A stretch of 25,326 nucleotides of DNA, from IMG/VR virus record IMGVR_UViG_2565956724_000002. One strand, given 5' to 3'. The first letter of the stretch is position 1. Every line of letters begins with the position of its first letter. The position numbers and the translations under genes are program-made. Origin of the DNA: a virus (Duplodnaviria > Heunggongvirae > Uroviricota > Caudoviricetes). Shown one piece after another: positions 3,940 to 23,496 of the stretch. The notes beneath the pieces were generated by a model, which saw nothing but the letters and a program-made list of their open reading frames with translations, was not told the DNA's origin and searched no databases.

Positions 3940-3957
3940 TGTTCAATAACCCTTAAG

Positions 3958-5544: not shown

Positions 5545-5549
5545 ATTAT

Positions 5550-5567: not shown

Positions 5568-5576
5568 ATTCTTCCA

Positions 5577-6695
5577 TTATTCAGCCGCCACCGGTTTTAA
5601 CAAGCCAGCATCGAGCAGTTTACGCGTCAACCACTGCTGGCCTTTACCCGTTAATTGAGGCGTCAACCGTATCTGGTAGCCATCTTCATCATCCAGCACC
5701 ACTTCTTTCACCGTGAAATACCCCGCGTTGATGTACTGCTGGAACGGCACATTTTTACGTCCACCGGACGCTATCAGGATGCCGTTCTCCCGTAACCAGA
5801 CAAACAGCGCGTTTTGCTTAAGTCCAACAACCTTTGCAAAATTCCCAATCAGGATCCCTTTAGCTACTGATACCCGGTCGGCAAAATCGACTTTAGGAGC
5901 GGCGGCCACCAGCTGCTGATTTAGCTGGTGGGCTTTCTGTTCCAGAAGTTGCTTTTGTTCAGCCAGTTCGGCAGCCAGGCGTAGGGCTTCAGGAAGCGTC
6001 TGGGGGATTGCGATCGGTTGCTGTTCTTTTTGTCGGAAGTAGCTGTCTTCCAGTTTTTCAAAGAATGCCCATGCCTGATCGGTTTCGAGCATTTTAGCGT
6101 GGCGGGCTGCGCCGCGTTCTGTCCAGAGGGTGAGTGAGCGAACATTGCGAGCAATTTTTACAGAGTAGTTTAAAGCTACTCTGTGCTTCAACTCGCGCAA
6201 TGATTCTCCTTCAACTTTGAAAAAGTGCTTCCCTTCAACAAAGCGTACTTTGTTCTCATGATGATTTTGGCGAATACGGATTGTTTCTGTCCCATACCCT
6301 CTAGCAAGAGTCTCGGTTGTCACTACACGCACTCCCTGCCATTCCAGAACGGGAATTTCATCAGACTGATTCTGAACAACCACCAGCTCCGATTCCTGAA
6401 CTGAAGGTGCATGAATTTTTTCTGATTTAACGTTAGTTGCTTTCATTCTGTGTGCCTCCTTGCGTGATTCGGCTGCGGCGGTTGCGTAATTCAGATGCCC
6501 CTGTTCGAGCAGGTATTCGCGGATATCAGACAGCAGGATGCGGTGAACTGCGTTCTTGTCCTTTCTCCGGTAAAGTTGTTTGGTGATCATGAAGTAGTTG
6601 GCAATAACGCCCGGTATATCCCTAGTACTGATACAGGCAGTGTGCTGTTCAATTGCCTCGATCATCTCTTCACGGGTAACTAATGACGTTCTCAT
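5577..6695 (-). CDS. Phage antirepressor-like protein (ORF6N/Bro-N-like central region, KilA-C-like C-terminus), 372 aa
   Basis: The central segment VLEWQGVRVVTTETLARGYGTETIRIRQNHHENKVRFVEGKHFFKVEGESL and the C-terminal segment ...LFVWLRENGILIASGGRKNVPFQQYINAGYFTVKEV... resemble these domain families from memory. The ATG overlaps the upstream ORF's stop (ATGA). Confidence 0.6.
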   Translation of the reverse strand: MRTSLVTREEMIEAIEQHTACISTRDIPGVIANYFMITKQLYRRKDKNAVHRILLSDIREYLLEQGHLNYATAAAESRKEAHRMKATNVKSEKIHAPSVQESELVVVQNQSDEIPVLEWQGVRVVTTETLARGYGTETIRIRQNHHENKVRFVEGKHFFKVEGESLRELKHRVALNYSVKIARNVRSLTLWTERGAARHAKMLETDQAWAFFEKLEDSYFRQKEQQPIAIPQTLPEALRLAAELAEQKQLLEQKAHQLNQQLVAAAPKVDFADRVSVAKGILIGNFAKVVGLKQNALFVWLRENGILIASGGRKNVPFQQYINAGYFTVKEVVLDDEDGYQIRLTPQLTGKGQQWLTRKLLDAGLLKPVAAE

Positions 6696-6913
6696 AGTCC
6701 CTCCTGAGCAGAAGCGTTAACAGGGAGGCACCAGTAACTGAGAGAATTGCGTGAATCAGTGGAAAAACGGGCAGAGAAAATACATGGGGCGTCAGGAAGC
6801 TGAGAATGGGCCTCATCTTCTGTCGGTGCAATAACGAAGTGATAGTGACGTTTTTGGCAGGAGTAAAAGCGCCAGATAAATTCAGGATGAATTGGGGTAG
6901 GGACAGTAGCCAT
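6692..6913 (-). CDS. Small hypothetical protein (73 aa), translationally coupled to the antirepressor-like gene
   Basis: AAAGGAGG lies about 8 nt upstream of the ATG at 6913. The stop overlaps the downstream start by 4 nt. Confidence 0.5.
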   Translation of the reverse strand: MATVPTPIHPEFIWRFYSCQKRHYHFVIAPTEDEAHSQLPDAPCIFSARFSTDSRNSLSYWCLPVNASAQEGL

Positions 6914-7098
6914 AATGGCAGCCTCCTTTGACTAAGTTAAGGAGCTACCGCGTGAGGTCTCAATCTCAATGGCGGTAGCACTGACTGGGTTGAGACTACC
7001 GGCGTCAAAGGGAACCGGCCTGCCTTTCGGCAGCCCAGCCAGCACTACCATTGATTTCGGAGCTAAACGCTACGTATGGCTGTGCGATGGCATGACAC

Positions 7099-7120
7099 AA
7101 AAAAAGACGCTTTCGGCGTC
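7099..7120 (-). terminator. Intrinsic terminator, minus strand (pacB 3' end and/or attenuator in the leader of the downstream operon)
   Basis: Stem GACGC / GCGTC (7106-7110, 7116-7120) with loop CGAAA on the minus strand, followed by U7 (plus-strand A7 at 7099-7105). Confidence 0.6.
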
Positions 7121-7244
7121 TGTGTCGCCTTTGACATTATCCGGGGTCTCAATCCCGGCACCCGTTTTAATGAGGTGCCTGATAAGCATAAACCGAAAAT
7201 GCCTCAAGGCGCAAGAGGTCAGGTTCAATGTAACATCGGCAGTC

Positions 7245-7261
7245 AAAAAACACAATTTATT
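7245..7261 (-). promoter_or_regulatory. C1 operator-like site just downstream of the pacB stop
   Basis: The reverse complement, CTTGCTCTAATAAATTG, matches the consensus at 15 of 17. Confidence 0.6.
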
Positions 7262-8463
7262 AGAGCAAGTGTTTATTCATTAAGCCATGCCAGAGCTTCA
7301 TCAACCTGCGCTTCGTCTTCGACGCTAAGCACTTCGTCCTGGGGAACATAATCCGCCAGCATAGCGAAACAATATGTATCCCAATGGTCTGGTGAGTGCA
7401 GGTTGAGTTTTTTCTTCATATCCTCCTTACTCATCACCTTCCATTGACCTGCGGAGTTAATCCCTACAGGGATTTTCGACGCTTCCTCAATAGTTTCATT
7501 ACCCTTATCCAGTCTCATACGACCAGATTTTACGGCCTCTGCGGCTTGAACGTTGGCATAAGCACGTTTATCAAAGTACAGGCTCTTATCTTCACGGCTA
7601 TGCATCTTTTTACCCCAGCGTATACGCTGTACGGTAATACCATAATACTCGTACATCAGATCCGCCGTTGCTTTACCCAGGCCATCGCCGTCTATCGCTA
7701 TGGTGATATTGGGGAATCGCTCAGGATTACATTCTGCGAAAATTTTGGCGGCAAGCTGCGTTTCTGTAACGTCTGTGTATTCCAGCATTCGATAGTTGAT
7801 TACACGGCGTTTATTTCGCTGGCCGGACACCATCATGATATTGATAAAGGACTTATCCCGTCCTGTACCACCAGCAACGTCCACACATGCAAGCCAGCCC
7901 CATCCTTTGGCAATCTTGACTTTCCGCCGCGTCGCACGTTCAACCTCATCACGTCCAAGAAGGAAGCCGTCCTGTAATTTAGGGAATAGGCCGCGTACCT
8001 TAATCATGTACATAGGGTTATCACGCCCGCCGTACTCCGCCAGCTTCATTTTGATAAATTCTGACGTTACCAGCGGTGATTCCTCACTGTTAAGCGTGAT
8101 CGCCGTATAAACGCCATCTGGGTTACCAGGACGCTTGGCCAGTTTATGGTGAGTATCGTAGAAATAGCCGCTTGGGCGTGTAGGCTGTGACAGTAATAAG
8201 ATGCGGTTATCCTGTCCGGTAAGAGCACCGGTGATGATACCGAAAGCTCTATCACTGACACCGGAGGCTTCATCGATAATATACAGAAGATGATCTGCGT
8301 GTTCACCGGCGAGAACTTCTTCACTTCCCAGACGAAAGCCCTTCGGTACTACAGTCCATACACCTTTACCAGTAGACTGGCCCCCTGAATCTCCAGACAA
8401 CCAGTATCACTTATTTAAGTGATAGTCTTAATACTAGTTTTTAGACTAGTCATTGGAGAGCAG

Positions 8464-8829
8464 ATGATTGATGTCTTAGGACCGGAGAAACGCAGACGGC
8501 GTACCACACAGGAAAAGATCGCAATTGTTCAGCAGAGTTTTGAACCGGGGATGACGGTCTCCCTCGTTGCCCGGCAACATGGTGTAGCAGCCAGCCAGTT
8601 ATTTCTCTGGCGTAAGCAATACCAGGAAGGAAGTCTTACTGCTGTCGCCGCCGGAGAACAGGTTGTTCCTGCCTCTGAACTTGCTGCCGCCATGAAGCAG
8701 ATTAAAGAACTCCAGCGCCTGCTCGGCAAGAAAACGATGGAAAATGAACTCCTCAAAGAAGCCGTTGAATATGGACGGGCAAAAAAGTGGATAGCGCACG
8801 CGCCCTTATTGCCCGGGGATGGGGAGTAA
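8464..8829 (+). CDS. insC: IS2 OrfA (InsC)
   Basis: [56 protein letters not shown]... Confidence 0.93.
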
Positions 8830-9692
8830 GCTTAGTCAGCCGTTGTCTCCGGGTGTCGCGTGCGCAGTTGCACGTCATTCTCAGACGAACCGATGACTGG
8901 ATGGATGGCCGCCGCAGTCGTCACACTGATGATACGGATGTGCTTCTCCGTATACACCATGTTATCGGAGAGCTGCCCACGTATGGTTATCGTCGGGTAT
9001 GGGCGCTGCTTCGCAGACAGGCAGAACTTGATGGTATGCCTGCGATCAATGCCAAACGTGTTTACCGGATCATGCGCCAGAATGCGCTGTTGCTTGAGCG
9101 AAAACCTGCTGTACCGCCATCGAAACGGGCACATACAGGCAGAGTGGCTGTGAAAGAAAGTAATCAGCGATGGTGCTCTGACGGGTTCGAGTTCCGCTGT
9201 GATAACGGAGAAAAACTGCGAGTCACGTTCGCGCTGGACTGCTGTGACCGTGAGGCACTGCACTGGGCGGTCACTACGGGCGGCTTCAACAGTGAAACAG
9301 TACAGGACGTCATGCTGGGAGCGGTGGAACGCCGCTTCGGCAACGAGCTTCCGGCGTCTCCAGTAGAGTGGCTGACGGATAATGGTTCATGCTACCGGGC
9401 TAATGAAACACGGCAGTTTGCCCGGATGTTGGGGCTTGAACCGAAGAGCACGGCGGTGCGGAGTCCGGAGAGTAACGGCATAGCAGAGAGCTTCGTGAAA
9501 ACGATAAAGCGTGACTACATCAGTGTCATGCCCAAACCAGACGGGTTAACGGCAGCAAAGAACCTTGCAGAGGCGTTCGAGCATTATAACGAATGGCATC
9601 CGCATAGTGCACTGGGTTATCGCTCGCCACGGGAATATCTACGGCAGCAAGCCAGTAATGGGTTAAGTGATAACAGGTGTCTGGAAATATAG
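8787..9692 (+). CDS. insD: IS2 OrfB (InsD) transposase
   Basis: [34 protein letters not shown]... contains a DDE-type integrase core and overlaps insC in the usual IS3-family arrangement. Confidence 0.93.
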
Positions 9693-10092
9693 GGGCAAAT
9701 CCAACCAGTAACCTCATAGAAAGCGGTTTCTGTCAGAACAAAATAATCAGCAAGCCATGGAAAACGGCTGGTGGCAGTAGCCCAGTTTATCTTGATGTAC
9801 TTGAATATACCGGTCATTACCTGCTGAATTTTGTTCGCAACGATAATGGCGCGGGCACCGGGATACATGATTATGAACAACATGATCATGATAGAAGTCA
9901 TGTCTGATTTCCCGGTACCGTGACCAGACGAAACAGATGTCTTGCTACCCTGTTCCTGCACAGACTCAATAATCAGATCCTGCTGCCAGGTAGGTGTTTT
10001 GCCGAACAAAACATCAGCGGCCGCAATCCAGTCATAACGATATAGCGCCACCAGCTCGCGCCAACGTGGATCCGTTACGCAACTTCTGGCCA

Positions 10093-10694
10093 TTAATCAT
10101 CATCCCCGTATAGCTTGCGGGTAACTTCTTCGTCTTCCTCCTCGTCTTCGTCCAGGTCTTGTTCCAGCCATGGGTCGTTTGATACACCTTCAGTATCAAC
10201 ATCTCCATAACCGCCTGTATCAACGATATCGGCGATTTCTTCCCTACGCTGCTCAATCCACAATGCGGCATCGGCGCGGCGGTTGGCGGCCCGTTCTCGC
10301 GCAACTTTGTCCAGATCTTCAAGAGAAGGGCCACCGACGGCTGTTTGCCTTTCCTCATCATCGGTATTGGTCTTAGGAGCACGCAGATCGGCTTTGATTT
10401 GCTCCAGCATCAGGGGCGGCACTTTCCCGCCATGCGCCTCGATGAATTCAGCTGCTTCCAGCACTGACCAGTTATTTTCACGCTTTCGTTCGTACTGTCA
10501 TCAATCAAAACAGACGAATACTTAGACACAGCGATAGCTTTTAAGCGCAGATAAACATCGCGCTTATCGACATCCAGATGCGGGTATTCCTTTTCAAGAA
10601 TTGCTGCGAGTTCTTTCGCTGATAGAAGAGATTTAGTGCGGATCATGTAATTCGCAATCTCGTACGATGTTATTCGTGAGTGATTTATTTCCAT
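10093..10694 (-). pseudogene. Small terminase-like gene immediately upstream of pacB, split across two frames (frameshift)
   Basis: One ORF (ATG at 10694, stop at 10410) has an HTH-like N-terminal part; a second, in another frame (open from 10497 to the stop at 10093), has an acidic tail DEDEEEDEE. They overlap by about 90 nt, and the final stop overlaps the pacB ATG (TAATG). Confidence 0.4.
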
Positions 10695-10794
10695 GAAGTG
10701 GCGTCCCTGCCAGTTAAGTAACATCCTGTCACCTACTGATTAGCCCATGTCAACTAATCAACGTGGAATATAATACCATCGATTAAAGAAATAG

Positions 10795-10811
10795 CAATAC
10801 ATTAGAGCAAT
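10795..10811 (-). promoter_or_regulatory. C1 operator-like site upstream of the small terminase-like gene
   Basis: The reverse complement, ATTGCTCTAATGTATTG, has the core ATTGCTCTAAT (14 of 17). Confidence 0.4.
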
Positions 10812-10812
10812 T

Positions 10813-11856
10813 TTATCTAACGCTCGACGAGTAACTTGTGATAGCGCCGACTCCAAGCGCGTAATCAAAGAACAATCGTTGATGCATCGCCAGCCTACCG
10901 TGCGTCTTCTCCCAATTATCGCGGTCACGCTCAATATCACGCTGGCATGACTGGCACAGAGGAATTGCGTAAATGTCATGCGCGCATAATCGACTATGAC
11001 GAACGATATAAGGCGTAATGTGAGCGCCAGCTCCCGCAGCTCCACAGCCACAGCATGGACGGGAAGCCACAAAGTCCATGTACTCGGGCAATTTTAGCGA
11101 TTGAAGTTTTGGTATTTTGAAATGCGCCATACCTGGGTCGGAGTCAACATCCACAGGGCATACTTTTGCACGCATCGGCGCGGCGCGTTCTTCCATCATC
11201 TGAACATATGCTGTAGCGCGATCGTCATACGGGCGAATATCCGCCTCTTTCAGAGGTCCGCTATCCTGCGGAGCAGCCTTCATCTTATTTATTGATATGC
11301 GGCAGACTTCTTCCGGCATCAGGTGCATCATGTTACGCATGAAAGCCCACCAGCACAGCTCCTGAATACTTAAATCATGGCTATCTGAAAGGCCCATTTC
11401 CTGACGGGCGACATCCAGTATCCAGTTAACGCGATTATTGTGCAGCGTTTCTTTCAGCTCATTAAAACCACGCATCCGGTAATGGTTATCGTGATGCCAG
11501 CACAACAACACCGCGCTATTGTCTCGTTCAGCGTGGACAATATGGTTGTCACACCAGCTACGATCTGCGGCCTGGCATTGCCCCTCTTTCCTGCGCAACC
11601 ACGCCACCAGCGCGTCAATTCCACCAATACGGCGAAACAGTTCATCGCTGTTAAAAAACGGCTGCAACGCCTCATTTGTTGCTATAGTTTGCTCGGAAGC
11701 AACGAGGCCGTCGTCCATGTGCTCGATTAACTCACGCGGCACCGGCTCCATAATAAATTTACGGCCAGCCTCCACCAGCTTTCTGACCTCCTGATCCACT
11801 TTGAACGTGGCGAGGCCAAGTTCTTTCTGTACAAAGGGAGTAATTACGGCTTTCAC
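10813..11856 (-). CDS. Cys/His-rich hypothetical protein (347 aa) with HNH-like motifs, upstream of the terminase genes
   Basis: GTG start with RBS AAAGGTG. Motifs [22 protein letters not shown] and CCGCG...HSRLCAHD...PLCQSC. It is not P1 PacA as I recall it, and no TGATCA pac-type cluster lies in this region. Confidence 0.45.
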
Positions 11857-11883
11857 ATCACACCTTTAATCACTGATTGGGCT

Positions 11884-12063
11884 TTATATGCTGCCCGGCA
11901 TTCTCTGTTTAAGCACAACCATTTCCTGACGGCATAACACAGCAATAGCGGTCCTGGCACCAATTTGCTTACCAGCCAGGTATTGCTTTACCTCGCGGCG
12001 ACTCACGCCATCAAGAAGCATCTTTAACGCTTCACGGGACAATTTGTTGTATTTGCGTGCCAT
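11884..12063 (-). CDS. Small hypothetical protein downstream of doc (pdc-like by position)
   Basis: 59 aa from the ATG at 12063 (MARKYNKLSREALKMLLDGVSRREVKQYLAGKQ...), directly after the doc stop. Confidence 0.4.
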   Translation of the reverse strand: MARKYNKLSREALKMLLDGVSRREVKQYLAGKQIGARTAIAVLCRQEMVVLKQRMPGSI

Positions 12064-12067
12064 TAAT

Positions 12068-12448
12068 CTACTCCGCAGAACCATACAATCTACGTAACGT
12101 GTCGGCGACAGAAGATACAGATATCTCTCCGGTCGCAGCCCCTACGGTAAGGTCTGCCAGTTCAGGTGAATCAAATACCTGCACCCCGTTACGGCGTAGA
12201 AATAACAGCGCACTGTTTAGCGCGGTACGCTTATTGGCATCATTGAATATATGCCCTCTCGCTGTAGCCACCAGGTAGGTGGCGGAGACTTCGAAAAGGT
12301 CGGTGATCTCTTCGTAGGCAACTCTGGCCTGAACTCTCCCGATAATGGCCTCTGCCCTACCCGGATCTGACATTCCCGGCAGGCCGCCGTAGCGGTTTAT
12401 ATTCGCATCATGAAGCGCAATAAGTTCTTCCGGTGATATATGCCTCAT
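12068..12448 (-). CDS. doc: Doc toxin (Fic-fold kinase) of the phd-doc addiction module, 126 aa
   Basis: [43 protein letters not shown]... matches P1 Doc nearly exactly. Confidence 0.95.
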
Positions 12449-12669
12449 TATCGGTTAACCAGTTCCTTGTTGGTGGAGTCCAGGGTGTCAAACAGGGATG
12501 CAAATTCAGCATCCAGCGCCGCTTTTTTGTAGGCTTCGAAAGTAGCCTTGCTGACAATTACTGCTGGCTCACGGCCTCTGCGGGTGATTTCAACCTCTTC
12601 CCCGGCCTCAACATTGTTGAGCACTTCAGAAAGGTTGCCGCGCGCGGTACGGAAGTTAATGGATTGCAT
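12448..12669 (-). CDS. phd: Phd antitoxin, 73 aa
   Basis: [49 protein letters not shown]... matches P1 Phd. Its stop overlaps the doc start. Confidence 0.95.
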
Positions 12670-12710
12670 AAATACCTCGTGTACTCGTTATGTGTACACA
12701 ATTATAAACT
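12670..12710 (-). promoter_or_regulatory. phd-doc promoter/operator region with a GTGTACAC palindrome
   Basis: Palindrome TGTGTACACA at 12691-12700 and a GTGTAC half-site at 12679-12684, immediately upstream of phd. Confidence 0.5.
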
Positions 12711-12845
12711 TCACAGGCATAAAGCACCAGCACTTTGCGGCTTAACAAACCTCTAGGCAGGTCATTCGTAGCCTAATGTCCGAACTGCTAAAGCATCCAA
12801 GTTGCTGTAGAATCACCGCCAATTACATAAGCCTGAAATAAGTGG

Positions 12846-13463
12846 ATGAAAATGACAAGTATTCAACAACGTGCAGAGCTTCATCGTCAAATCTGGCAAA
12901 TTGCTAACGATGTCAGGGGTTCGGTCGATGGATGGGATTTTAAGCAATACGTTCTGGGCGCACTTTTCTACCGTTTTATCAGCGAAAATTTTTCCAGCTA
13001 TATTGAAGCCGGTGATGACAGCATCTGTTATGCGAAACTGGATGACAGCGTAATTACTGATGACATTAAAGACGATGCCATCAAAACTAAAGGCTACTTC
13101 ATCTACCCCAGTCAGCTTTTCTGCAACGTAGCGGCGAAAGCAAATACCAATGACAGACTGAATGCAGATTTAAACAGCATCTTCGTTGCTATCGAAAGTT
13201 CTGCTTACGGTTATCCTTCAGAAGCTGACATCAAAGGTTTGTTTGCTGATTTCGATACCACCAGTAACCGCCTGGGTAACACCGTTAAAGATAAAAATGC
13301 CCGCCTGGCTGCGGTTCTGAAAGGGGTTGAAGGGTTAAAACTTGGTGACTTCAACGAACATCAGATTGACCTGTTCGGTGATGCCTATGAGTTCCTGATT
13401 TCTAACTATGCGGCAAATGCCGGTAAGTCAGGCGGTGAGTTCTTTACACCGCAGCACGTCTCC
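12846..13463 (+). pseudogene. hsdM: Type I restriction-modification methyltransferase HsdM, N-terminal fragment only (type IC / EcoR124-like by recollection), cut off by IS1
   Basis: [44 protein letters not shown]... ending ...[16 protein letters not shown], which reaches the HsdM FxTP motif. The ORF then runs straight into the IS1 terminus at 13464. Confidence 0.7.
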
Positions 13464-13518
13464 GGTGATGTTGCCAACTTACTGATTTAGTGTATGATGG
13501 TGTTTTTGAGGTGCTCCA

Positions 13519-13794
13519 GTGGCTTCTGTTTCTATCAGCTGTCCCTCCTGTTCAGCTACTGACGGGGTGGTGCGTAACGGCAAAAGCACTGCCGGACATC
13601 AGCGCTATCTCTGCTCTCACTGCCGTAAAACATGGCAACTGCAGTTCACTTACACCGCTTCTCAACCCGGTACGCACCAGAAAATCATTGATATGGCCAT
13701 GAATGGCGTTGGATGCCGGGCAACCGCCCGCATTATGGGCGTTGGCCTCAACACGATTTTACGTCACTTAAAAAACTCAGGCCGCAGTCGGTAA
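13519..13794 (+). CDS. insA: IS1 InsA
   Basis: [43 protein letters not shown]... Confidence 0.93.
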
Positions 13795-14216
13795 CCTCGC
13801 GCATACAGCCGGGCAGTGACGTCATCGTCTGCGCGGAAATGGACGAACAGTGGGGCTATGTCGGGGCTAAATCGCGCCAGCGCTGGCTGTTTTACGCGTA
13901 TGACAGGCTCCGGAAGACGGTTGTTGCGCACGTATTCGGTGAACGCACTATGGCGACGCTGGGGCATCTTATGAGCCTGCTGTCACCCTTTGACGTGGTG
14001 ATATGGATGACGGATGGCTGGCCGCTGTATGAATCCCGCCTGAAGGGAAAGCTGCACGTAATCAGCAAGCGATATACGCAGCGAATTGAGCGGCATAACC
14101 TGAATCTGAGGCAGCACCTGGCACGGCTGGGACGGAAGTCGCTGTCGTTCTCAAAATCGGTGGAGCTGCATGACAAAGTCATCGGGCATTATCTGAACAT
14201 AAAACACTATCAATAA
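13713..14216 (+). CDS. insB: IS1 InsB reading frame (expressed as an InsAB' fusion by frameshifting)
   Basis: ...[65 protein letters not shown]... Confidence 0.9.
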
Positions 14217-15424
14217 GTTGGAGTCATTACCCGAATGATGGTTGCCCATACATCAAAGGACTGGTTAACCGGCAGAGCGATGTCAAAGGTGTCGGTCGCA
14301 AGAGTACGCCAGATCATGATGCGAAGACGCAGCATATCCTGTTCATGAGACAGGTATTCCTTCAGGGTGCGGAACTGTAGGGAACCCAGGTCCAGACCAA
14401 ATTCACGCTGTGCTTCATACGCCGCCTGTACCGTGTGCTCAGCCGCGATAACGAACTGGCTTGGGAACAGGGTGTATTTCTTCATTTCGTGGTTGATCAG
14501 CGGGATCAGCTCAGGAGCGGCTTCAATATTGATTTCCGTCTCAATTGCGATCTCAGTGCCTTTATCCGGCGCTTTGGAGAACGACAGGGAAATCTGACCA
14601 ATGTTGTAGTTCAGAGAGCAGGTAACAGTGATTTGCTCACCAGCAGCATTAGTAAACGAGTGAAGTAGGCTGCCGGAACCGTTATCAACAACAGACTTAA
14701 TACGGTTAACGTAGATGTTAGTGCGACCTTTTCGGATTGGTACATTCTGGCCTTCGAAGTCTTCCATCTTGAAGGTTGCGGTTTTGCTGGTGCCATCGGA
14801 GCTTGCCACCAGCACATAGCGGCGGCGTAACTGGCTGTACACACCGACGGATTGCATGTCCAGAACATCACCAGCAGCATAAGAACCAAAAGAGGAACCT
14901 GCCACGTTAAAGACTTCATAGATGTCGGACTGGTCACGCGTAACCGGAATGAAGGTACACGCATCAGCGGTAGCTGCCCCCAACTGAACAGGCAGGATCA
15001 TCGCGAGGAATAAAGGCAGACGCATAACACCGTCAGAAACGCTCATCATCTCTGCTGCGACGGATTCCAGCATCGCTTTATTAGTGGCATCCATGCTATT
15101 GCGGGTGGACTCAATCAGGCAGTTTTCCAGCGTCTGGTGGCAGGAGGCCAGAATTTCCGGACGCGGCATAGATTTATGTGCTGCGGCGTAGTCAGCCAGT
15201 GCACTTGCCCACGCGGTAGCAATTTGAGCGGTGGCATTATCAGAGATACCCGCAAAAATTGGGTCTTTACGTGCAGCTTCAAGGATAGATGCGGCACGCG
15301 CGGCATCATCTTTGATGAATTGGTTATCAGTACCGAACTGTGCTGTACTTGCCCAGCCAAGAACGGCTTTAGAGCGTTTTGCGATATCTGCAATACGATT
15401 CTGGTATTCGCGTAAGTTACTCAA
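14210..15424 (-). pseudogene. Capsid-like structural protein gene (P1 gene 23-like by position next to par), with its 3' end lost at the IS1 junction
   Basis: Probable TTG start at 15424 with RBS AAGGAAG. The last ~6 codons and the stop lie inside the IS1 terminus. The identity is inferred from position and composition only. Confidence 0.35.
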
Positions 15425-15483
15425 GTTACTCTTCCTTAAACACAAGGCACTTGTGTGAATCCCTTTTCGGAAGAGATTTTATT

Positions 15484-15583
15484 GAAAGTCACTTGTTGAC
15501 TTTCTCGCGAAAAGTAATTTTTTGTGCGGGGAAGTGGACGGTGAATGCAGGCGTTAAATCGTGGGAATTTCAGTCTGAAATTC
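15484..15583. promoter_or_regulatory. parS: parS-like centromere region downstream of parB, with two perfect palindromes
   Basis: GAAAGTCA-cttgt-TGACTTTC at 15484-15504 and GAATTTCAG-t-CTGAAATTC at 15565-15583. The ATTTCA-type half sites resemble P1/P7 parS heptamers. Confidence 0.5.
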
Positions 15584-15679
15584 TCCTAAAAAACACATGC
15601 AAATCATAATGTTAGCAATGAAATTGGTGCGGGACATTTTAGGAAGGGGAGGGGCTAACACCACCTCCCACCAGCGGGA

Positions 15680-16645
15680 TTATTCCCCAGCAGACATTTT
15701 CCCAATGATTTTTTTTATTGCTTCGTCAATTTCAGTTTGCACTTCAGACGGGAGTCTGGAGAACTCGTAGGCGACAACCCGTTTTTTCGGATCGGACTTC
15801 TTTCGAGCATATTGGCGACGGTCAGAGAAGTCTCGCAGCTTCTCAACCACCACAGATTTAACCGGCGCGGGCTTCAGGCTTTTGCTTTCCGCTTTGAAGA
15901 TAGCCAGTATCTTCGCTTTATCCTCTTTCGCGCCCTCAGTCTCTGCAATTCGTTCGCGCACCGTATCAACCAGCTCTTCAATAGGCACGCTTTTAGCGTT
16001 GGCATCCTCGGAGATCTGGAGCAGTAACTGGTAATCTGGCAGGGCGAGATCGCTGGCAACAGGGAAGACAGCAATCATCTCATCCGGCACCGCTGCCGCC
16101 TGGAACGCGCGCGTAACTTTAGCCTTTGAAATGTTCTCAGCGCGGGCGATCTCTTCTTTGGTCATGCTCTTACCATACATAACCTCGAAGCGTTTACCCA
16201 GTTCGCGCAGGGTGTGTTCGCGGGCTGTCTGGATATCAATGGCCAGCTGGCGTGCATCCGCCAGGCTGATCTCATCTTTCGTCACCAGAATCTCAAATTT
16301 CGTTTCATTGAAGATACACGCAGCGCGGCGACGTGATCCGTCCAATACCTCAATGCGCTCCCCAACCATACGACCGATAGCCGGGAAGAACTGTTGCAAT
16401 TTAATGGTGCGGGAAATATCGCTTACCGACTCAGGGGTGAGCAGAGACTGATCGCGGCCGTTAACTGCCGGGTCAACGAACGTGCGCGACTCAATCTCAC
16501 CACTCAGCACAACGGTAAGCAAAAATTTAGCCTGGCGGCCAGATTTTAGGGTAAAGGTTTTGGTGCCTTCACTGCCTTCAAGCATGCGAGCAAACTCGGA
16601 GCTATTCTTGCCCAGCACTCGTCCACGGGAAACTATTTTTTTCAT
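15680..16645 (-). CDS. parB: ParB partition protein (P1/P7 family, divergent from P1)
   Basis: Conserved ...RTFVDPAVNGRDQSLLTP...QQFFPAIG...ILDGSRRRAA..., immediately downstream of parA and overlapping it by 4 nt. Confidence 0.85.
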   Translation of the reverse strand: MKKIVSRGRVLGKNSSEFARMLEGSEGTKTFTLKSGRQAKFLLTVVLSGEIESRTFVDPAVNGRDQSLLTPESVSDISRTIKLQQFFPAIGRMVGERIEVLDGSRRRAACIFNETKFEILVTKDEISLADARQLAIDIQTAREHTLRELGKRFEVMYGKSMTKEEIARAENISKAKVTRAFQAAAVPDEMIAVFPVASDLALPDYQLLLQISEDANAKSVPIEELVDTVRERIAETEGAKEDKAKILAIFKAESKSLKPAPVKSVVVEKLRDFSDRRQYARKKSDPKKRVVAYEFSRLPSEVQTEIDEAIKKIIGKMSAGE

Positions 16646-17853
16646 GCCGCCTCACCCCTAACAAACTCAATTCGATCAAACACAGCCTTAGTGAAACGCT
16701 CGGCCTCGGTTCGTGCCTTCTTCAGCGCCTCTGCACTGCCTGGATACGATTGCGGGTTGGCACTGATTACGGTGTCGAAAGACTCGCCGCATCGCTCAAA
16801 TCCATCCAGACGAGGCAGAGAAGAGTCCAGAATGTTGCTGGCGTAAACCTCACGCGCAAGGCTGTGTGATGTCTCGTGATCGCGCTTGCCGGTCATCTTC
16901 GACATAAAACCAATGCTGGCGCTTAAACGCGGTTCTACGCCTTCCTCCTCCAGTTGCTCCAGCATTTCTGGCAGACGGGTGAGATATTTCAGTGTTGAGT
17001 GGAAGTCAACCTGGGCTGGTGGGGTAGGGGTAAGCAGCAAATCGCTGGCCGCCAGACCGTTGAGCAGGAACGGATCCAGGTGTGGACCGGTATCAATAAA
17101 GATAAAGTCATAATCATCCGCAACACGATCAATGATATTGCGTCGAAGGATTTCGTACTGATTTTGTCCGGGAAGATGCTCTTCAACCAGCTCTTTCCAT
17201 TGGCTGGCAACAAAGCCATCGTCGATAGAGGCTGGAATCACGTCTACGCCAGGAACGATGGTCGGACGAATCACCTCTTTGCGTAGCGTCTCCGCGTCCA
17301 AGTCGTTCAGCATCGCCTGCGCGGCGGTTTCCAGGATGGAACCAATACTGTGAGTATGGTCGAGGAACATTGTGCTGGATGCCTGAGGGTCAAGGTCAAT
17401 TACCAGAATGCGCAGATCGTGACGCAGTAAATCCTGATGCACACGCAGAGCGTGCGCCAACGTGACTGTGGAAACCGTTTTGGATACGCCACCCTTCAGG
17501 TTTACGACAAAAATAACGTAAGGCGATTTGTGAATGTCGCGATATTTTGGGATCTTACGGTGGGCATAGATATCAATGACGTTCTGGATGGTCAGCGCGT
17601 ACTGTTCAACGTTACCGACCTGTTTCTTGTTGAACTGGTACCCATCATCTTCCATCTCTTTGATGGCCTGCTCCACAATGCGGCGGCTCAGCTTCGGCAA
17701 CTTTGCCACAGCGTTACGAGTGAACGTCTGATAATACTCGGTCTGATTGAACTCTTTGCGCTGATCTTCAATATCCTGACTCATGGCCTTAAGTAATGCG
17801 CTTGCACGAAGAGCTATGGTGCCGACACCGCCGTAATCGCGTTTCATCATCAT
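16642..17853 (-). CDS. parA: ParA partition ATPase (type Ia, with N-terminal HTH extension)
   Basis: Walker A VVNLKGGVSKTVSTVTLAH, and the C-terminal ...LPRLDGFERCGESFDTVISANP...KAVFDRIEF is almost as in P1 ParA. The N-terminus differs from P1. Confidence 0.9.
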   Translation of the reverse strand: MMMKRDYGGVGTIALRASALLKAMSQDIEDQRKEFNQTEYYQTFTRNAVAKLPKLSRRIVEQAIKEMEDDGYQFNKKQVGNVEQYALTIQNVIDIYAHRKIPKYRDIHKSPYVIFVVNLKGGVSKTVSTVTLAHALRVHQDLLRHDLRILVIDLDPQASSTMFLDHTHSIGSILETAAQAMLNDLDAETLRKEVIRPTIVPGVDVIPASIDDGFVASQWKELVEEHLPGQNQYEILRRNIIDRVADDYDFIFIDTGPHLDPFLLNGLAASDLLLTPTPPAQVDFHSTLKYLTRLPEMLEQLEEEGVEPRLSASIGFMSKMTGKRDHETSHSLAREVYASNILDSSLPRLDGFERCGESFDTVISANPQSYPGSAEALKKARTEAERFTKAVFDRIEFVRGEAA

Positions 17854-17961
17854 CTCCTTATCATTTCGTATGAGTGAATTGTACGTTTGATTCTGCTACG
17901 TGCAACTTATTTTGATTCGTGCGTAAATTATTGCACGTAAAGAAATGGCGATGAGGCTATT

Positions 17962-18249
17962 AGATGTGTGCTGGAGGGATGATGCAGGACCAGAATGTGC
18001 GATAGAGGGAAGTCGCATTGAATTATGTGTTGTGGAGGGATCGCTGGTATCAAATATGTGCGCTGAAGGGAAAGATAGAAGATTAGATGTGCGCTGGAGG
18101 GAAACTTGGATGGTTAGATGTGTGCTGGAGGGAATGTCTGGGCAAACTGCGTGGCGCAACCCTCCAGCGCACACCAAAAACAGGAAAATGGGCAGGCATT
18201 CCCGGCAGCGCACATTTTTCAAATGCAGCTGCCCTCCAGCACACACTTA
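17962..18249. repeat. incA: incA iteron array (about nine 19-bp RepA-binding repeats, both orientations)
   Basis: Repeats of the GATGTGTGCTGGAGGGAAA type, e.g. 17962-17981, 18022-18041, 18085-18104, 18115-18135, and inverted copies CCCTCCAGCGCACAC and GCCCTCCAGCACACAC at 18160-18249. Confidence 0.85.
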
Positions 18250-19107
18250 TTCGGGAAGTTTCAGCTTTGGATTGCGAGAATGGACGATTACAAAACTTTC
18301 CCGGCCTTTCTTCTCAATTGAACAGTCGAGATAGCCAATTGTTTTAAGCTGTTCTATCGCTTTCTTAATGATACGGTTTTGCTCGCCAACAGCTGACTGC
18401 AAAGCCAGGCGCTCACGGATTCGCGCGAACGATAGCGGCAACGGGTTCTGCGGAAGGCTTTCGATGAAAGTGTAAATGGCTTGTGCAGCTTCTTTCTTCG
18501 GAAGGGCACGCAAGGCGTGGTGTTGCAACAGAACGCGATAATCAAGCTGGAACAGCTCCCAGAGCTTCGAATCGGCCTCCAGCTCTATCAGATCAAGGTC
18601 AGCATCAAAACGCCCGACCTTCAGCAGACCAGTCTGATAGCCGCCTTTAGCATCTTTTCCGCGCTTAAAAGCGATACCCTTGTTACGCAAGCGTCCAAGT
18701 GATTCATGAATGGTTAAACGCAGTTTCGCATCCAGACGTTTTGAGGGGAAACCACAGGCTTTAGCGAACTCCTGAAACGATAACTGGATGGTGTTTGAAG
18801 ACAAGCCGTATTTGCTGAACGCGTAGATGACACCGATCCACGTTTTGAAATCAGTATCCATATCGAGTCGAGGACCGGTGATTTTAATATCATCGTAACC
18901 CTCGGCTTTAGCTATCTCCAGCTGGGAAAACGCTTTGGTGGCATCAATCTCTTTACTTTCTCCTTTGCTCTTTGATGGCTTCGGAACGAATACCCCCAAG
19001 CGCATCAACGCTACAGGCTGCACAGTGTTGTTTGAATTAACTGTTAGTTCTTTTGCCTTACTTTCAATGTCTGCGTAAAGAATATCGGAGATAAATGATT
19101 GATTCAT
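18247..19107 (-). CDS. repA: RepA replication initiator of the plasmid R replicon, 286 aa
   Basis: MNQSFISDILYADIESKAKELTVNSNNTVQPVALMRLGVFVPKP... matches P1 RepA. It is flanked by iteron arrays on both sides. Confidence 0.95.
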   Translation of the reverse strand: MNQSFISDILYADIESKAKELTVNSNNTVQPVALMRLGVFVPKPSKSKGESKEIDATKAFSQLEIAKAEGYDDIKITGPRLDMDTDFKTWIGVIYAFSKYGLSSNTIQLSFQEFAKACGFPSKRLDAKLRLTIHESLGRLRNKGIAFKRGKDAKGGYQTGLLKVGRFDADLDLIELEADSKLWELFQLDYRVLLQHHALRALPKKEAAQAIYTFIESLPQNPLPLSFARIRERLALQSAVGEQNRIIKKAIEQLKTIGYLDCSIEKKGRESFVIVHSRNPKLKLPE

Positions 19108-19166
19108 ATTACTTTTTCCGAATTATGTGGATAGTTTTTATAAGTGGTGATAACTACCCAGGCTTT

Positions 19167-19270
19167 CCCGTCAGCACACATCCTATATCCCGCCAGCACA
19201 CATTAGCAACCCGTCAGCACACATTTTTATCCCTCCAGCACACATCGTTTTCCCTCCAGCACACATCGCG
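19167..19270. repeat. incC: incC iterons (five direct repeats at about 21-bp spacing) overlapping the repA promoter
   Basis: CCCGTCAGCACACATC, CCCGCCAGCACACATT, CCCGTCAGCACACATT, CCCTCCAGCACACATC and CCCTCCAGCACACATC. Confidence 0.85.
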
Positions 19271-19299
19271 ATACACTTCTAAGCCAGACGTGGCGCGGC

Positions 19300-19384
19300 C
19301 TGCAACGATCAGGGATCTATATGGATCTAATTGGGATCTGTATGGACCTAATTATTGGATCTACCCAGTGGATAATGTGGATAA
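19300..19384. promoter_or_regulatory. oriR: oriR core: five GATC-containing heptamer repeats plus tandem DnaA boxes
   Basis: GATC at 19307, 19314, 19324, 19335 and 19358. TGTGGATAA (a perfect DnaA box on the other strand) at 19376-19384 and GTGGATAAT at 19368-19376. Confidence 0.85.
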
Positions 19385-19424
19385 GTGAAAAACCGGCCAA
19401 CATAGCCGGTTGGAAGGAAGGGTA

Positions 19425-19817
19425 TTATTCTACGCTTTCGATAAGAAGACCATGTTCATAACATTTAAGCTCATCGCCTTCGTACAGGAATTGGTATCCA
19501 ATACCACCATTTTCATGGACATTAGGGAATAACTCATAACTCACTGAAGAGCAAATCACACCAATGCAGCGATCAACGCCTTCTCGTTCTTCAGTGCTGA
19601 AAAAATCCTCTTCGGTAAGGACATGAGTACATTGCTCATCAGCATAGGTCGGAAATACATGCTCGATGCAATCCGGGTGTTTTAAACCAAGCTGATCGGC
19701 AAGCTCGAAAGCATGACGGTATTGTTCAGATCCTGGCTTGCCAACAGTGATGTGCTCAATTTTGTAGATTGAAGTTGCTTTGTTGATAGTTTGCTTTACT
19801 GTTACTTTATCAGACAT
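19425..19817 (-). CDS. Hypothetical protein (upfA-like by position next to the origin)
   Basis: 130-aa ORF; no motif recognised. Confidence 0.45.
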   Translation of the reverse strand: MSDKVTVKQTINKATSIYKIEHITVGKPGSEQYRHAFELADQLGLKHPDCIEHVFPTYADEQCTHVLTEEDFFSTEEREGVDRCIGVICSSVSYELFPNVHENGGIGYQFLYEGDELKCYEHGLLIESVE

Positions 19818-19828
19818 AAAAATCCCTT

Positions 19829-20161
19829 TTAGTTACCTCTGATAGCGCGGTTGTAATCATTAACGTTGCGATTCTTCCTGTTAATCCCCATCAGCATCGT
19901 TTCTGTATCGAGGATATACGCTGGCAGATCATCAAAATATTCATTGCTAAACTCTGGCATCCTGCACATAAATGCACTTTTGGGGGCAGGGTGGTTAACC
20001 TTTGTCGGCGTCGGCGTTAAATTCGCTGATCGACTGCCGGAGCAACCGCTGAGTGTCAGCAGGAATGCGCTGGCGAACATTACCCGCCGCAACCAGTTGT
20101 TTCTGAACTTCAGCTTTTCGTTCCATTTGCCTGTCAGCATATTTGGCTTGTTCTGATTCAT
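19829..20161 (-). CDS. Putative lipoprotein (mlp-like)
   Basis: Signal peptide with lipobox: ...FASAFLLTLSGCSGS. Confidence 0.55.
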   Translation of the reverse strand: MNQNKPNMLTGKWNEKLKFRNNWLRRVMFASAFLLTLSGCSGSRSANLTPTPTKVNHPAPKSAFMCRMPEFSNEYFDDLPAYILDTETMLMGINRKNRNVNDYNRAIRGN

Positions 20162-20417
20162 TTTTCACTTCCTGGCTGTGAAAATGTTGCTCTGCTTTGT
20201 TCATCGTCTCAATGGTCTGGTTAAGATCCATTATTGACTTATCACGTTCCTTAACAGCCTGATCAAGACTGCCAATTTTCTCCATGGCTTGCTTTAGCTG
20301 ATGACGTTCCCATGCAAACCCAGCACCAACAAGTGCGCAAATCAGAACAAGAACACCAGTAGCAGCAAGTTTCTCCTTCAAAGACAAAGCTGTTTTTAAC
20401 GTAGAAAAGAATGACAT
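19995..20417 (-). CDS. Putative membrane-anchored or periplasmic coiled-coil protein (ppfA-like)
   Basis: N-terminal hydrophobic segment LAATGVLVLICALVGAGFAW followed by a charged, helical region. The start is taken at MSFFSTLK. It overlaps the 5' end of the lipoprotein ORF, so one of the two starts is uncertain. Confidence 0.45.
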   Translation of the reverse strand: MSFFSTLKTALSLKEKLAATGVLVLICALVGAGFAWERHQLKQAMEKIGSLDQAVKERDKSIMDLNQTIETMNKAEQHFHSQEVKNESEQAKYADRQMERKAEVQKQLVAAGNVRQRIPADTQRLLRQSISEFNADADKG

Positions 20418-21183
20418 GTCTTCCTCCTGAAGAAAAATTATCAATGAAGTCCTTTGTTACTGTGCCGCTTTGTTTAATTCATCAATAACAGAATCAGGAA
20501 CCAAAGCGGCAACTGCGCTGGCTGTGCTGACCTTATTTGCTGATGCTTCCGCAAGCGCGGTACCGATAGCATGGTTATAAGCAGTTATGGCTACGTTGGC
20601 GCTTTCATTCGCTCGTTCATACTGCTGTTGTAACGCAGTTGTGGGCGCTGTTGTCTGGTTGAAAACAACCCCAAACTGTTCAGTTGCTACTTTCAGAGAT
20701 TCAATTTGCTCTTCTGTTAGTGCTGGTGGGGGAGTGGCAGTGCCGCCGCCTGAACCAGAGCCTGACGAGCTTCCTGAGCCAGTGTTAAGGGTCTGGTTAA
20801 TCTCCCCCATAGCAGCGACTAAACTTGATGTATTAAGCGCGTTAACAGCGTCCTCAAGCGATTTAGTAATATTCACATCACCAATGGCAATAGAGATCGG
20901 CAGTTCTGAAACTTCTCGCTCATTAGCACGGCAGTAAACATCCCAACCAATATCGAGTTGAAGCAGCATTGACAGATCTGCATAACCAGCCAACAGGTCC
21001 GCGTGCTTAGTTGCCAGTTCTCCAATGTTCGTTAAGCCGGTTGTGGTTGTTCTTATCGTTGAAACATAGCTGGTAATAGTGTCGGGATAGACAATTGTAT
21101 GTAAGCGTCGTCTGAGTACCGTCTGGTCCCGAATCCAGGATCCTGTAACTTAAGCACCCACTTATTTTGCAGGTGGACACCTC

Positions 21184-21567
21184 ATGCGCGCTAAAGAAAG
21201 ACTTCCCCGGAAACACTATTCCCCTGAATTCAAAATGGAACTGGTCAGGCTGGCTCTTGAAGAAGAAGGCAGTATTGCCGCACTGGCCCGGAAACATGAC
21301 GTCAATGATAACCTGCTCTTTAAATGGATAAGGCTCTGGCAGCGTGAAGGGCGGGTCTGTCGGCCCCGAAAAAACTCATCGTCGCTTCCTGCCCTGATAC
21401 CCGTGCAGCTTCAGGCGGGCTCTTCTCTCCCAACCTTCGAACTACCATCCTGCTCTCCTCCCGCTACCTGCCACATAAAATGTCGGGGAGGAGAAATAAC
21501 ACTGACTCATCCCTCTGCTGAACTCATGAGCACTGTCCTGCGCGAACTGATGCGGGGGCCGGTATGA
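21184..21567 (+). CDS. tnpA: IS66-family accessory protein TnpA (orf1)
   Basis: First ORF of the IS66-type triplet; HTH-like N-terminus. Confidence 0.75.
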   Translation: MRAKERLPRKHYSPEFKMELVRLALEEEGSIAALARKHDVNDNLLFKWIRLWQREGRVCRPRKNSSSLPALIPVQLQAGSSLPTFELPSCSPPATCHIKCRGGEITLTHPSAELMSTVLRELMRGPV

Positions 21568-21911
21568 TAAATCTTCCCGCAGGCACAAAAATCTGGCTGG
21601 TTGCCGGTATCACCGATATGCGCAACGGCTTCAATGGCCTCGCCGCAAAGGTGCAGACCGCGCTGAAAGATGACCCGATGTCCGGCCACGTCTTCATCTT
21701 CCGGGGACGCAGCGGCAGTCAGGTAAAACTGCTCTGGTCCACCGGCGATGGTCTGTGCCTGCTGACAAAGCGACTGGAACGTGGTCGCTTCGCCTGGCCC
21801 TCAGCCCGCGATGGCAAAGTGTTCCTGACGCCGGCGCAACTGGCGATGCTGATGGAAGGTATCGACTGGCGACAGCCAAAGCGGTTACTGACATCCCTGA
21901 CCATGTTGTAG
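21564..21911 (+). CDS. tnpB: IS66-family TnpB (orf2)
   Basis: MINLPAGTKIWLVAGITDMRNGFNGLAAKVQTALKDDPMSGHVFIFRGRSGSQVKLLWS... is the typical IS66 Orf2 sequence. Overlaps tnpA by 4 nt. Confidence 0.85.
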   Translation: MINLPAGTKIWLVAGITDMRNGFNGLAAKVQTALKDDPMSGHVFIFRGRSGSQVKLLWSTGDGLCLLTKRLERGRFAWPSARDGKVFLTPAQLAMLMEGIDWRQPKRLLTSLTML

Positions 21912-21960
21912 CGCTCTTTATCCTGGTTGTCGCAGAATAAGCCTGGTAAAATACAGGCTT

Positions 21961-23496
21961 ATGAACGATACCTCTTCTGACGACATCCTTCTGCTGAAAC
22001 AGCGCCTGGCCGAACAGGAAGCGTTGATCCACGCCCTGCAGGAAAAGCTGAGCAACCGGGAACGCGAAATAGACCATCTGCAGGCGCAACTGGATAAGCT
22101 GCGCCGGATGAACTTCGGCAGTCGTTCCGAAAAGGTATCCCGCCGTATCGCGCAAATGGAAGCTGACCTGAACCTGCTGCAGCAGGAAAGCGATACGCTG
22201 ACCGGCCGGGTGGATGACCCGGCAGTGCAGCGCCCGCTGCGTCAGACCCGCACCCGCAAACCGTTCCCTGAGTCACTCCCACGGGATGAGAAGCGGCTGC
22301 TGCCGACTGAGCCGTGTTGCCCGGAGTGCGGTGGTTCGCTGAGTTACCTGGGTGAGGATGCCGCCGAACAGCTGGAGCTGATGCGCAGCGCCTTCCGGGT
22401 TATCCGGACAGTCCGTGAAAAGCATGCCTGCCGTCGGTGCGATCGCATCGTTCAGGCCCCGGCTCCTTCGCGCCCCATCGAACGGGGGATCGCCGGACCG
22501 GGGCTGCTGGCCCGAGTGCTGACCTCAAAGTATGCAGAGCACACACCGCTGTATCGCCAGTCGGAGATCTATGCCCGCCAGGGTGTAGTGTTGAGTCGTT
22601 CTGTACTGTCGGGCTGGGTGGATGCGTGTTGTCGTCTGCTGGCACCGCTGGATGAAGCCCTTCAGCACTATGTCCTGACCGACGGCAAACTCCATGCTGA
22701 CGATACGCCTGTCCCGGTGCTGTTGCCGGGCAATAAGAAGACGAAGACCGGGCGCTTATGGACGTACGTTCGAGACGACCGCAACGCCGGATCAGCGCTG
22801 GCCCCCGCAGTGTGGTTCGCTTACAGCCCGGACAGAAAAGGTATCCACCCTCAGACCCATCTTGCAGGCTTCAGTGGCGTACTGCAGGCTGATGCCTACG
22901 CCGGGTTCAACGAGCTCTACCGCGACGGCCATATAAAGGAAGCCGCGTGCTGGGCCCATGCCCGCCGAAAAATCCACGATGTTCACGTCCGTACCCCGTC
23001 AGTCCTGACGGAGGAGGCGCTGAAACGGATCGGCGAGCTGTATGCCATCGAGTCGGAGATCAGAGGTAAAAGAGCAGAGGAACGGCAGGCAGTCCGGCAC
23101 CAAAAAGTGCTGCCGCTGCTGGCGTCACTGGAGGGGTGGCTGCGGGAGAAACAGAAAACCCTCTCAAGGCACTCAGAACTGGCGAAGGCGTTCGGGTATG
23201 CGCTGAACCAGTGGCCGGCGCTGATCCGCTATGCAGAAGATGGCTGGGTGGAGGTGGATAATAACATTGCCGAAAACGCCCTACGACGGGTCAGTCTGGG
23301 GAGAAAAAACTGGCTGTTCTTCGGCTCGGATCATGGTGGTGAGCGCGGTGCGTCACTGTACAGTCTTATCGGGACGTGCAAATTAAACGGCGTGGATCCG
23401 GAACGCTATCTGCATTATGTACTTGATGTCATCGCCGACTGGCCTGTGAACCGGGTGGGTGCTCTGCTCCCGTGGCGGGTTACTCTGCCTGCCTGA
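21961..23496 (+). CDS. tnpC: IS66-family transposase TnpC (511 aa)
   Basis: N-terminal coiled coil, a CxxC...CxxC zinc motif (CCPECG...CRRCD) and a DDE region, as in IS66 transposases. Confidence 0.85.
   Translation: MNDTSSDDILLLKQRLAEQEALIHALQEKLSNREREIDHLQAQLDKLRRMNFGSRSEKVSRRIAQMEADLNLLQQESDTLTGRVDDPAVQRPLRQTRTRKPFPESLPRDEKRLLPTEPCCPECGGSLSYLGEDAAEQLELMRSAFRVIRTVREKHACRRCDRIVQAPAPSRPIERGIAGPGLLARVLTSKYAEHTPLYRQSEIYARQGVVLSRSVLSGWVDACCRLLAPLDEALQHYVLTDGKLHADDTPVPVLLPGNKKTKTGRLWTYVRDDRNAGSALAPAVWFAYSPDRKGIHPQTHLAGFSGVLQADAYAGFNELYRDGHIKEAACWAHARRKIHDVHVRTPSVLTEEALKRIGELYAIESEIRGKRAEERQAVRHQKVLPLLASLEGWLREKQKTLSRHSELAKAFGYALNQWPALIRYAEDGWVEVDNNIAENALRRVSLGRKNWLFFGSDHGGERGASLYSLIGTCKLNGVDPERYLHYVLDVIADWPVNRVGALLPWRVTLPA

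Follow-up and report, generated by a model that had tools for sequence, protein, structure and literature searches.

The stretch of DNA considered here (the window, 25,326 nucleotides, IMG/VR record IMGVR_UViG_2565956724_000002) corresponds to positions 1-25326 of scaffold KI538793.1 (109,782 bp) in the assembly GCA_000495075.1 of Escherichia coli UMEA 3148-1. Close to its middle lies a complete copy of the insertion sequence (IS) IS1, which joins the 5' part of hsdM, a gene of the type I restriction-modification (R-M) methylase family, to the 5' part of gene 23, the major capsid gene of phage P1. The source of the window is a P1-derived IncY plasmid that is no longer a phage: repA, parAB, c1, and cre are kept, the virion and packaging genes are broken or lost, and a relaxase has been gained. 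The structure at the IS1 is real but ordinary; it is a textbook IS1 rearrangement endpoint in a decaying plasmid of this kind.

On the left side of the element, the hsdM-derived sequence ends exactly at position 13463, after the residues ...FFTPQHVS, at the point where intact alleles go on with AAGCTGATT..., and position 13464 is already the first nucleotide of IS1. The reading frame runs on for 8 codons into the left inverted repeat (IRL) and stops at 13488-13490. Over its 612 nt the fragment has 7-12 nt mismatches to intact plasmid alleles. It holds only residues 1-204 of the protein; the S-adenosylmethionine (AdoMet)-binding motif DPAAGSGS and the NPPY motif of HsdM lie beyond the break, in the part that is lost, and there is no hsdS or hsdR in scaffold positions 1-33690, the range over which KI538793.1 was examined. 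What remains is a gene fragment of the methylase family rather than a functional member of it. On the right side, the gene 23 frame approaches on the opposite strand, continues for 7 codons into the right inverted repeat (IRR), and stops at 14210-14212. The result is a fusion open reading frame (ORF) of 404 aa, a fragment when set against the full-length gp23 of 568 aa. Both the hsdM and the gene 23 ORFs of the window record are pseudogene fragments, and neither should be annotated as functional. The IS1 between them is intact. It differs from RefSeq-annotated IS1A copies by 3 mismatches in 768 nt (99.6% identity), its termini are imperfect inverted repeats (18 of the first 23 terminal positions are complementary), and its called product of 232 aa carries the Pfam domains Zn_ribbon_InsA, HTH_Tnp_IS1, and DDE_Tnp_IS1.

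A simple insertion of IS1 is recognized by an 8-9 bp target duplication and by flanks that are contiguous in relatives, and this copy has neither. The 9 bp to the left of the element read CACGTCTCC and those to the right CGAATGATG; no target duplication was found at any length of 7-12 bp, and a search of the flanks with a slack of +/-6 bp returned as its best result a 4-bp chance match, one copy of which lies inside the IS1. Two other elements in the window serve as controls, and direct repeats do flank them: ACAATTGTAT in the case of the IS66-family element (21101-23535) and ACCAGTA in that of the IS3-family element (8375-9703). The original prediction on this DNA had noted that the hsdM coding sequence stops where the IS1 starts, that the opposite ORF ends inside the other terminus, and that the 9-bp flanks are unlike each other, and it had read these features as an IS1-mediated rearrangement and not a simple insertion. 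All of these points hold to the base pair, the closer alignment of the flanks included, and the two flanks do come from loci that lie tens of kb apart.

The two arms of the window, on either side of the IS1, have opposite orientations relative to P1. Window 2475-3974, with cre and cra, corresponds to P1 1500 down to 1 on the minus strand, while 14232-15523 and 17960-21100 correspond to P1 57581-58872 and 61484-64625, both on the plus strand. The P1-like phage vB_EcoM-673R5 (673R5 below), in which hsdMSR stands beside phd, gives the same picture: window 645-13462 aligns to it on the minus strand and everything from 14232 onward on the plus strand. Two complete sister plasmids, pH15-A (NZ_CP010179.1) and p1094-I (NZ_LT883139.1), have kept the P1 order and an intact hsdM-hsdS-hsdR; relative to both of them, the left arm from cre through phd to hsdM' is reverse-complemented and the right arm (23', par, rep) is collinear. 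It had been proposed that, on the P1 map, the par-rep segment is inverted with respect to the pac/phd-doc segment. The comparisons with P1, 673R5, pH15-A, and p1094-I all bear this out, and collinearity with P1 across the junction, which would have spoken against a rearrangement, is absent. In 673R5, pH15-A, and p1094-I, one strand carries both hsdM and gene 23; in the window their 5' parts converge on the IS1. Because a deletion in a P1-ordered circle would fuse the 5' part of one gene to the 3' part of the other without a change of strand, this convergence requires an inversion. An IS1 whose flanks are drawn from loci tens of kb apart in P1-type genomes, and stand in opposite relative orientation, is what an IS-mediated inversion leaves behind. 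The features of the two arms are collected in Table 1.

Table 1. Genes and elements on the two sides of the IS1 copy (positions are those of the window).
Feature	Coordinates	Strand	Remarks
cre	2508-3539	-	Left-arm marker, gene call
cra	3547-3768	-	Left-arm marker, gene call
coi	4373-4582	+	Left-arm marker, gene call
c1	4693-5544	+	Left-arm marker, gene call
doc	12068-12448	-	Pfam Fic; collinear with phd-doc of P1-like elements
phd	12448-12669	-	Pfam PhdYeFM_antitox; doc and phd are the last intact left-arm genes
hsdM 5' fragment	12852-13463	+	612 nt, codons 1-204 of 518; alternative ATG at 12846; Pfam HsdM_N, N6_Mtase
IS1 (IS1A-like), complete	13464-14231	+	768 bp; IRL 13464-13486, IRR 14209-14231
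insA	13519-13794	+	ORF within IS1
insB'	13713-14216	+	ORF within IS1, overlaps insA
Gene 23 5' fragment (P1 major capsid)	14232-15424	-	nt 1-1193 of 1707 (aa 1-397 of 568); P1 58773-57581, 98.4% identity
parB	15680-16645	-	IncY maintenance region, right arm, P1 plus-strand orientation
parA	16642-17853	-	IncY maintenance region, right arm
repA	18247-19107	-	IncY maintenance region, right arm

The junction between the IS1 and gene 23 is old. Its 404-aa fusion ORF is listed in 505 assembly blocks, and window 14232-21100 is 100% identical in four members of a plasmid family to which the sister plasmids belong. In these relatives, the IRL side of the same IS1 borders the lydA-lydB-darA region. Relative to 673R5, the family lacks ~26 kb, from ~63.4-63.5 kb to 89.53 kb, an interval that carries gene 22, tail and tail-fibre genes, kilA, and repL in that phage. 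The truncation of the capsid gene comes from this earlier ~26-kb IS1-associated deletion, which is common to the family. While the IRR-23' flank is constant among the members, the flank at the IRL differs between them: pH15-A and the loci L009 and L011 have it upstream of lydA; in p1094-I and at L007 and L012 it is 163 bp further in, with lydA cut to 95 aa; and one gut-metagenome contig, possibly chimeric itself, has a flank of another kind. This combination, one invariable IRR flank and IRL flanks that are nested or vary, is characteristic of adjacent rearrangements that IS1 drives from one end of an anchored copy. A synthetic junction query found no simple IS1 insertion at the same site of an intact gene 23 in complete E. 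coli genomes. The scaffold and the relatives carry a MobH/MobI module, with MobH (TraI_2) and MobI at ~27-30 kb of KI538793.1, and the relatives have metabolic or stress cargo as well. The family fits the reported passage of P1-like phage-plasmids to mobilizable plasmids by gene loss and gain of mob genes (Pfeifer & Rocha 2024, PMC10879196).

The junction with hsdM has a very different distribution. The HsdM'-IS1 fusion product (ESP38871.1, 212 aa) is on record from one contig only, that of the window, and an exact-pattern scan of IMG/VR for the left junction found nothing. Because this ORF occurs on a single contig, as against the 505 blocks with the 23'-IS1 ORF, the capsid truncation was inherited and the hsdM junction is a later, private event, specific to UMEA 3148-1. 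The earlier description of an IS1 between a truncated hsdM and a truncated capsid-like gene thus stands for both genes, the latter now identified as the P1 capsid gene, with the refinement that the capsid cut belongs to the older deletion and the hsdM cut to this strain. An exact look-up of predicted 307-aa HsdM 3' products gave two alleles in the collection searched, on contigs of at most 7,276 and at most 98,226 bp, neither of which is this scaffold. The 307-aa alleles of pH15-A and p1094-I are absent from the same collection; these are weak negatives, as no intact hsdM allele is identical to the 5' part in the window.

A single nucleotide ties the IS1 end at hsdM to the copy at gene 23. The IRL of the window copy has the variant GGTGATGTTGCC, with T8 in place of C8 (IS1 position 8, window 13471). 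T8 is found in most family copies of the gene-23-junction IS1, the pH15-A copy being C8, and all other IS1 copies in the compared loci, including one at scaffold 32825, are C8. Since the window copy has the combination T8/C262/A503, the same as the copy at L009, it is the anchored family copy whose IRL abuts hsdM. The T8 variant makes a handy lineage marker. Three differences from the pH15-A copy had raised the possibility of a hybrid IS1, made by a crossover between two IS1 copies; this candidate was dropped, as L009 has the same alleles at the same junction and T8 is present in most family copies.

Taken together, we consider it likely, with a probability of roughly 0.68, that two successive IS1-mediated events made the junction, a deletion at the root of the family and then an inversion into hsdM. 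IS1 is reported to transpose mainly replicatively (PMC12428005). In the first step, a copy that we call IS1a would have become fixed with its IRR at nt 1193 of gene 23, with the loss of the ~26 kb between gene 23 and lydA. In the second step, IS1a would have transposed intramolecularly into hsdM at codon 204, oriented so that an inversion and not a deletion resulted. Of the products, one IS1 would keep the IRR-23' flank and gain the 5' part of hsdM at its IRL, and this would be the copy in the window. A second, inverted IS1 is predicted elsewhere, with lydA at its IRL and CACGTCTCC-AAGCTGATT... (the hsdM 3' part) at its IRR, so that the 9 bp CACGTCTCC would be present twice. The same product could have been reached, indistinguishably, by another route, in which an IS1a-derived copy would first make a simple insertion in hsdM and the two IS1 copies would then recombine with each other. 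We infer this order of events, and with it the transpositional mechanism and the reciprocal junction. On this history, the consequences are a phd-doc/c1/cre arm flipped relative to par-rep and an inactivated hsdM, and therefore a dead type I R-M system.

It is worth pointing out that several observations weigh against this two-step history. The 3' part of hsdM, hsdS, hsdR, lydA, gene 22, and the 3' end of gene 23 are all missing from scaffold 1-33690, and the reciprocal junction was not seen there. The predicted junction (IRR-CACGTCTCC-hsdM 3') is likewise absent from IMG/VR and from the complete E. coli genomes, neither of which includes the source strain; this absence says little, because it is expected for a private event. 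A search for a second IS1 had been suggested, and a further IS1 end does exist, at scaffold 32825, the only other one visible in the scaffold, but it is in direct orientation and belongs to a conserved, older copy of the C8 type that is 100% identical in p1094-I, and it is not the partner of the inversion. Moreover, the contig that makes up the window was assembled from short reads across a multicopy repeat. Beside the IS1, the left arm is 97.6% identical to p1094-I and 98.8% to pH15-A, as compared to 100% for the right arm, a difference that could also be explained if the left arm came from a different P1-like element.

The passage of the contig through a multicopy repeat raises the possibility of an assembly chimera. 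The real plasmid would then carry the family-type lydA-IS1-23' arrangement plus a simple IS1 insertion, with its 9-bp duplication, in hsdM, and the assembler would have crossed from one IS1 copy to the other. The window is indeed a single contig of a gapped short-read scaffold in which IS1 is multicopy. It starts inside an ISKpn26 and ends in an IS3-family orfA, with Ns following at 25327-26691, and the assembly broke again at the other IS1, in an N gap that takes in the IS1 part from 32919 onward; the HsdM'-IS1 ORF, in turn, is known only from the NCBI scaffold and from no other assembly in the collection. We nevertheless regard a chimera as rather improbable. The genes on the far side (par, rep, mobH, mobI) follow the family order, and past the window the scaffold keeps the order of p1094-I at 100% identity through ISKpn26, mobH, mobI, a trhR-like gene, and the further IS1. 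The draft scaffolds L007 and L009 of the same collection pass through the same IS1 with a family-type lydA flank. Even in a chimera, an IS1a-type copy with a T8 IRL must still sit at codon 204, and hsdM would be disrupted by IS1 all the same. Recombination between two elements is a little less probable still, and we consider it unlikely. Here, an IS1 in the hsdM of a second P1-like element would have recombined with the IS1a of a p1094-I-like plasmid, and the cointegrate or hybrid would later have been trimmed, leaving a left arm of foreign origin. The drop in identity next to the IS1 speaks for such an exchange; the far left of the window (1-4258) is again 99.86% identical to p1094-I, and the best match to the hsdM'/phd/doc stretch (99.7%) is found in an unrelated 202-kb E. 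coli record; frequent recombination is also known for P1-like elements (PMC10879196). However, with the T8 IRL at hsdM, the donor IS1 would itself have to descend from IS1a, and the sister plasmids differ from each other in the left-arm region too, and the mosaicism may thus be older than the rearrangement. The two elements would furthermore both be IncY and hence incompatible, and their cointegrate would hold homologous backbones in inverted order, the trimming of which needs several extra steps.

Two further explanations do without an IS1-mediated inversion. In one of them, IS1 made only an adjacent deletion, in an ancestor that had already been flipped, for example by recombination between inverted copies of ISKpn26. 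Nested IS1 deletions are documented in the plasmid family and in IncF plasmids with phd-doc-hsdM, p1094-I does have inverted ISKpn26 copies able to flip a segment, and an independent plasmid, p2-S1-ZIM-01-A, also has its phd-doc arm flipped against 22-23-par. Yet an inversion through ISKpn26 would flip mobH and mobI as well, and both keep the order and orientation of p1094-I beside the right arm; the flipped order is seen in neither of the complete family members examined (pH15-A and p1094-I). We rejected this model on the orientation and the scaffold order and give it a very low probability. In the other, IS1 arrived by simple insertion and the target duplication has since decayed, for which there is nothing beyond the intact IS1 itself. 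The two flanking genes are far from each other in P1-type genomes, where one strand carries both, and the flanks do not share even a 5-bp repeat; with two-gene flanks, the orientation in P1 and 673R5, and the lack of any repeat, this explanation is excluded for practical purposes.

The two-step history calls on a well-known behavior of IS1. Adjacent deletions and inversions arise by intramolecular replicative transposition of IS1, a behavior reportedly described in classical studies of gal and of plasmids by Reif & Saedler 1975, Cornelis & Saedler 1980, and Turlan & Chandler 1995. As in those rearrangements, the old flank persists at one end of the element and the other end has acquired a distant target, a single copy is left without target duplication, whether a deletion or an inversion results depends on how the flanks are oriented, and nested endpoints are found on one side only. 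The mechanism is the same; the difference is that the assignment here rests on one endpoint and on comparative synteny. The P1 phage reportedly has a resident IS1 of its own, which is said to be a simple insertion near ssb/hxr in the P1 genome paper (Lobocka et al. 2004). Both are IS1 copies in a P1 genome, but the window copy interrupts gene 23, and a loss of ~26 kb is associated with it. Analogous behavior is reported for IS26 in clinical plasmids (PMC4471558).

Among the closest known structures are those of pH15-A and p1094-I. They have in common with the window plasmid the identical IS1-23' junction, a right arm at 99.8-100% identity, the MobH/MobI module, the c1/cre/phd-doc/hsdM remnants, and the replacement of phage morphogenesis genes by cargo islands. 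Unlike the window plasmid, they have the P1 order, an intact hsdMSR, and lydA at the IRL, where the window has the 5' part of hsdM and a flipped left arm. A further parallel is provided by the IncF plasmids pNR301_1 (L020, 6185-9190) and pAVS0967-A (L021, 5879-10050), each of which has a P1-type pdcA-doc-phd-hsdM(-hsdS) fragment bounded by IS1. Their hsdM belongs to the same allele family as that of the window, and the polarity of the IS1 is the same, with the IRL beside hsdM or hsdS. The truncations are nested, at nt 1284 of hsdM in one plasmid and inside hsdS in the other, and a constant SMODS/S-4TM module adjoins them. They differ from the window in their replicon, in their break points, and in having SMODS/S-4TM and not gene 23 on the IRR side; these cases look like deletions, not inversions.

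What is new, then, is the two-step history, the identification of the source of the window and of the family it belongs to, and a prediction of what the missing endpoint should look like; the mechanism is already textbook, and no new question about it is raised. The locus offers an example, worked out to the base pair, of how one IS may strip a phage-plasmid of its virion genes and then rearrange the remainder, a route that comparative studies have proposed. It also cautions that synteny-based typing of P1-like elements can be misled by IS1 inversions, or by assembly joins across IS1. A bolder idea, which we think doubtful, is that the gene-23-anchored IS1 with T8 is a recurrent one-ended rearrangement engine that founded the mobilizable family by deletion of virion genes and keeps reshuffling it. 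If this were true, the reshuffling would proceed by nested lydA deletions and by an hsdM inversion that kills the plasmid's own restriction system, and the c1/cre/phd-doc arm would have an orientation that varies and can perhaps be reversed.

Flips of this arm are seen in at least one other setting. p2-S1-ZIM-01-A (NZ_CP145673.1; L005, 8069-16572) is an independent P1-derived IncX1/IncY plasmid in which the doc-phd arm is flipped against 22-23-parB. Its breakpoints are different: hsdM is cut after ~307 nt by ISSen4, and an IS1 of the C8 type abuts the 3' end of an intact gene 22. Since this flip is independent and has other breakpoints, flips of the doc-phd arm seem to recur. The immunity, packaging, and addiction arm is also mosaic among plasmids that are otherwise nearly identical. 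Differences between the window and pH15-A cluster at 5500-7000 (the ant/icd region) and at 12000-13463 (doc-phd-hsdM'), and the pacB region is only ~84% identical to that of p1094-I.

Several smaller features of the window and its surroundings may be added. The partition system is of the P7 type and not the P1 type, because 14232-16500, which covers the parS-parB region, aligns in one piece to P7 (97.6%) while the match to P1 ends at 15523, just past gene 23. The IS3-family element at 8375-9703 is inserted in pacB, and a deletion of ~1.1 kb at window ~10492-10494, relative to 673R5 (its 29983-31077), has removed the 3' end of lpa and the 5' part of pacA; with these two lesions the plasmid is unable to package DNA. 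On the right arm, the IS66-family element (tnpA, tnpB, and a tnpC of 511 aa) has split upfB into ORFs of 178 and 55 aa. The 55-aa junction ORF is also present on a Logan contig of run SRR958580, which is probably from the same strain or a sibling. Beyond the window, scaffold 31273-32918 (L022) holds two small ORFs, one of them named TrhR or 'plasmid transfer protein' by its sources, followed by the IRL end of the further IS1; the two ORFs are 100% identical in p1094-I, occur in ~190 plasmids, and are absent from pH15-A.

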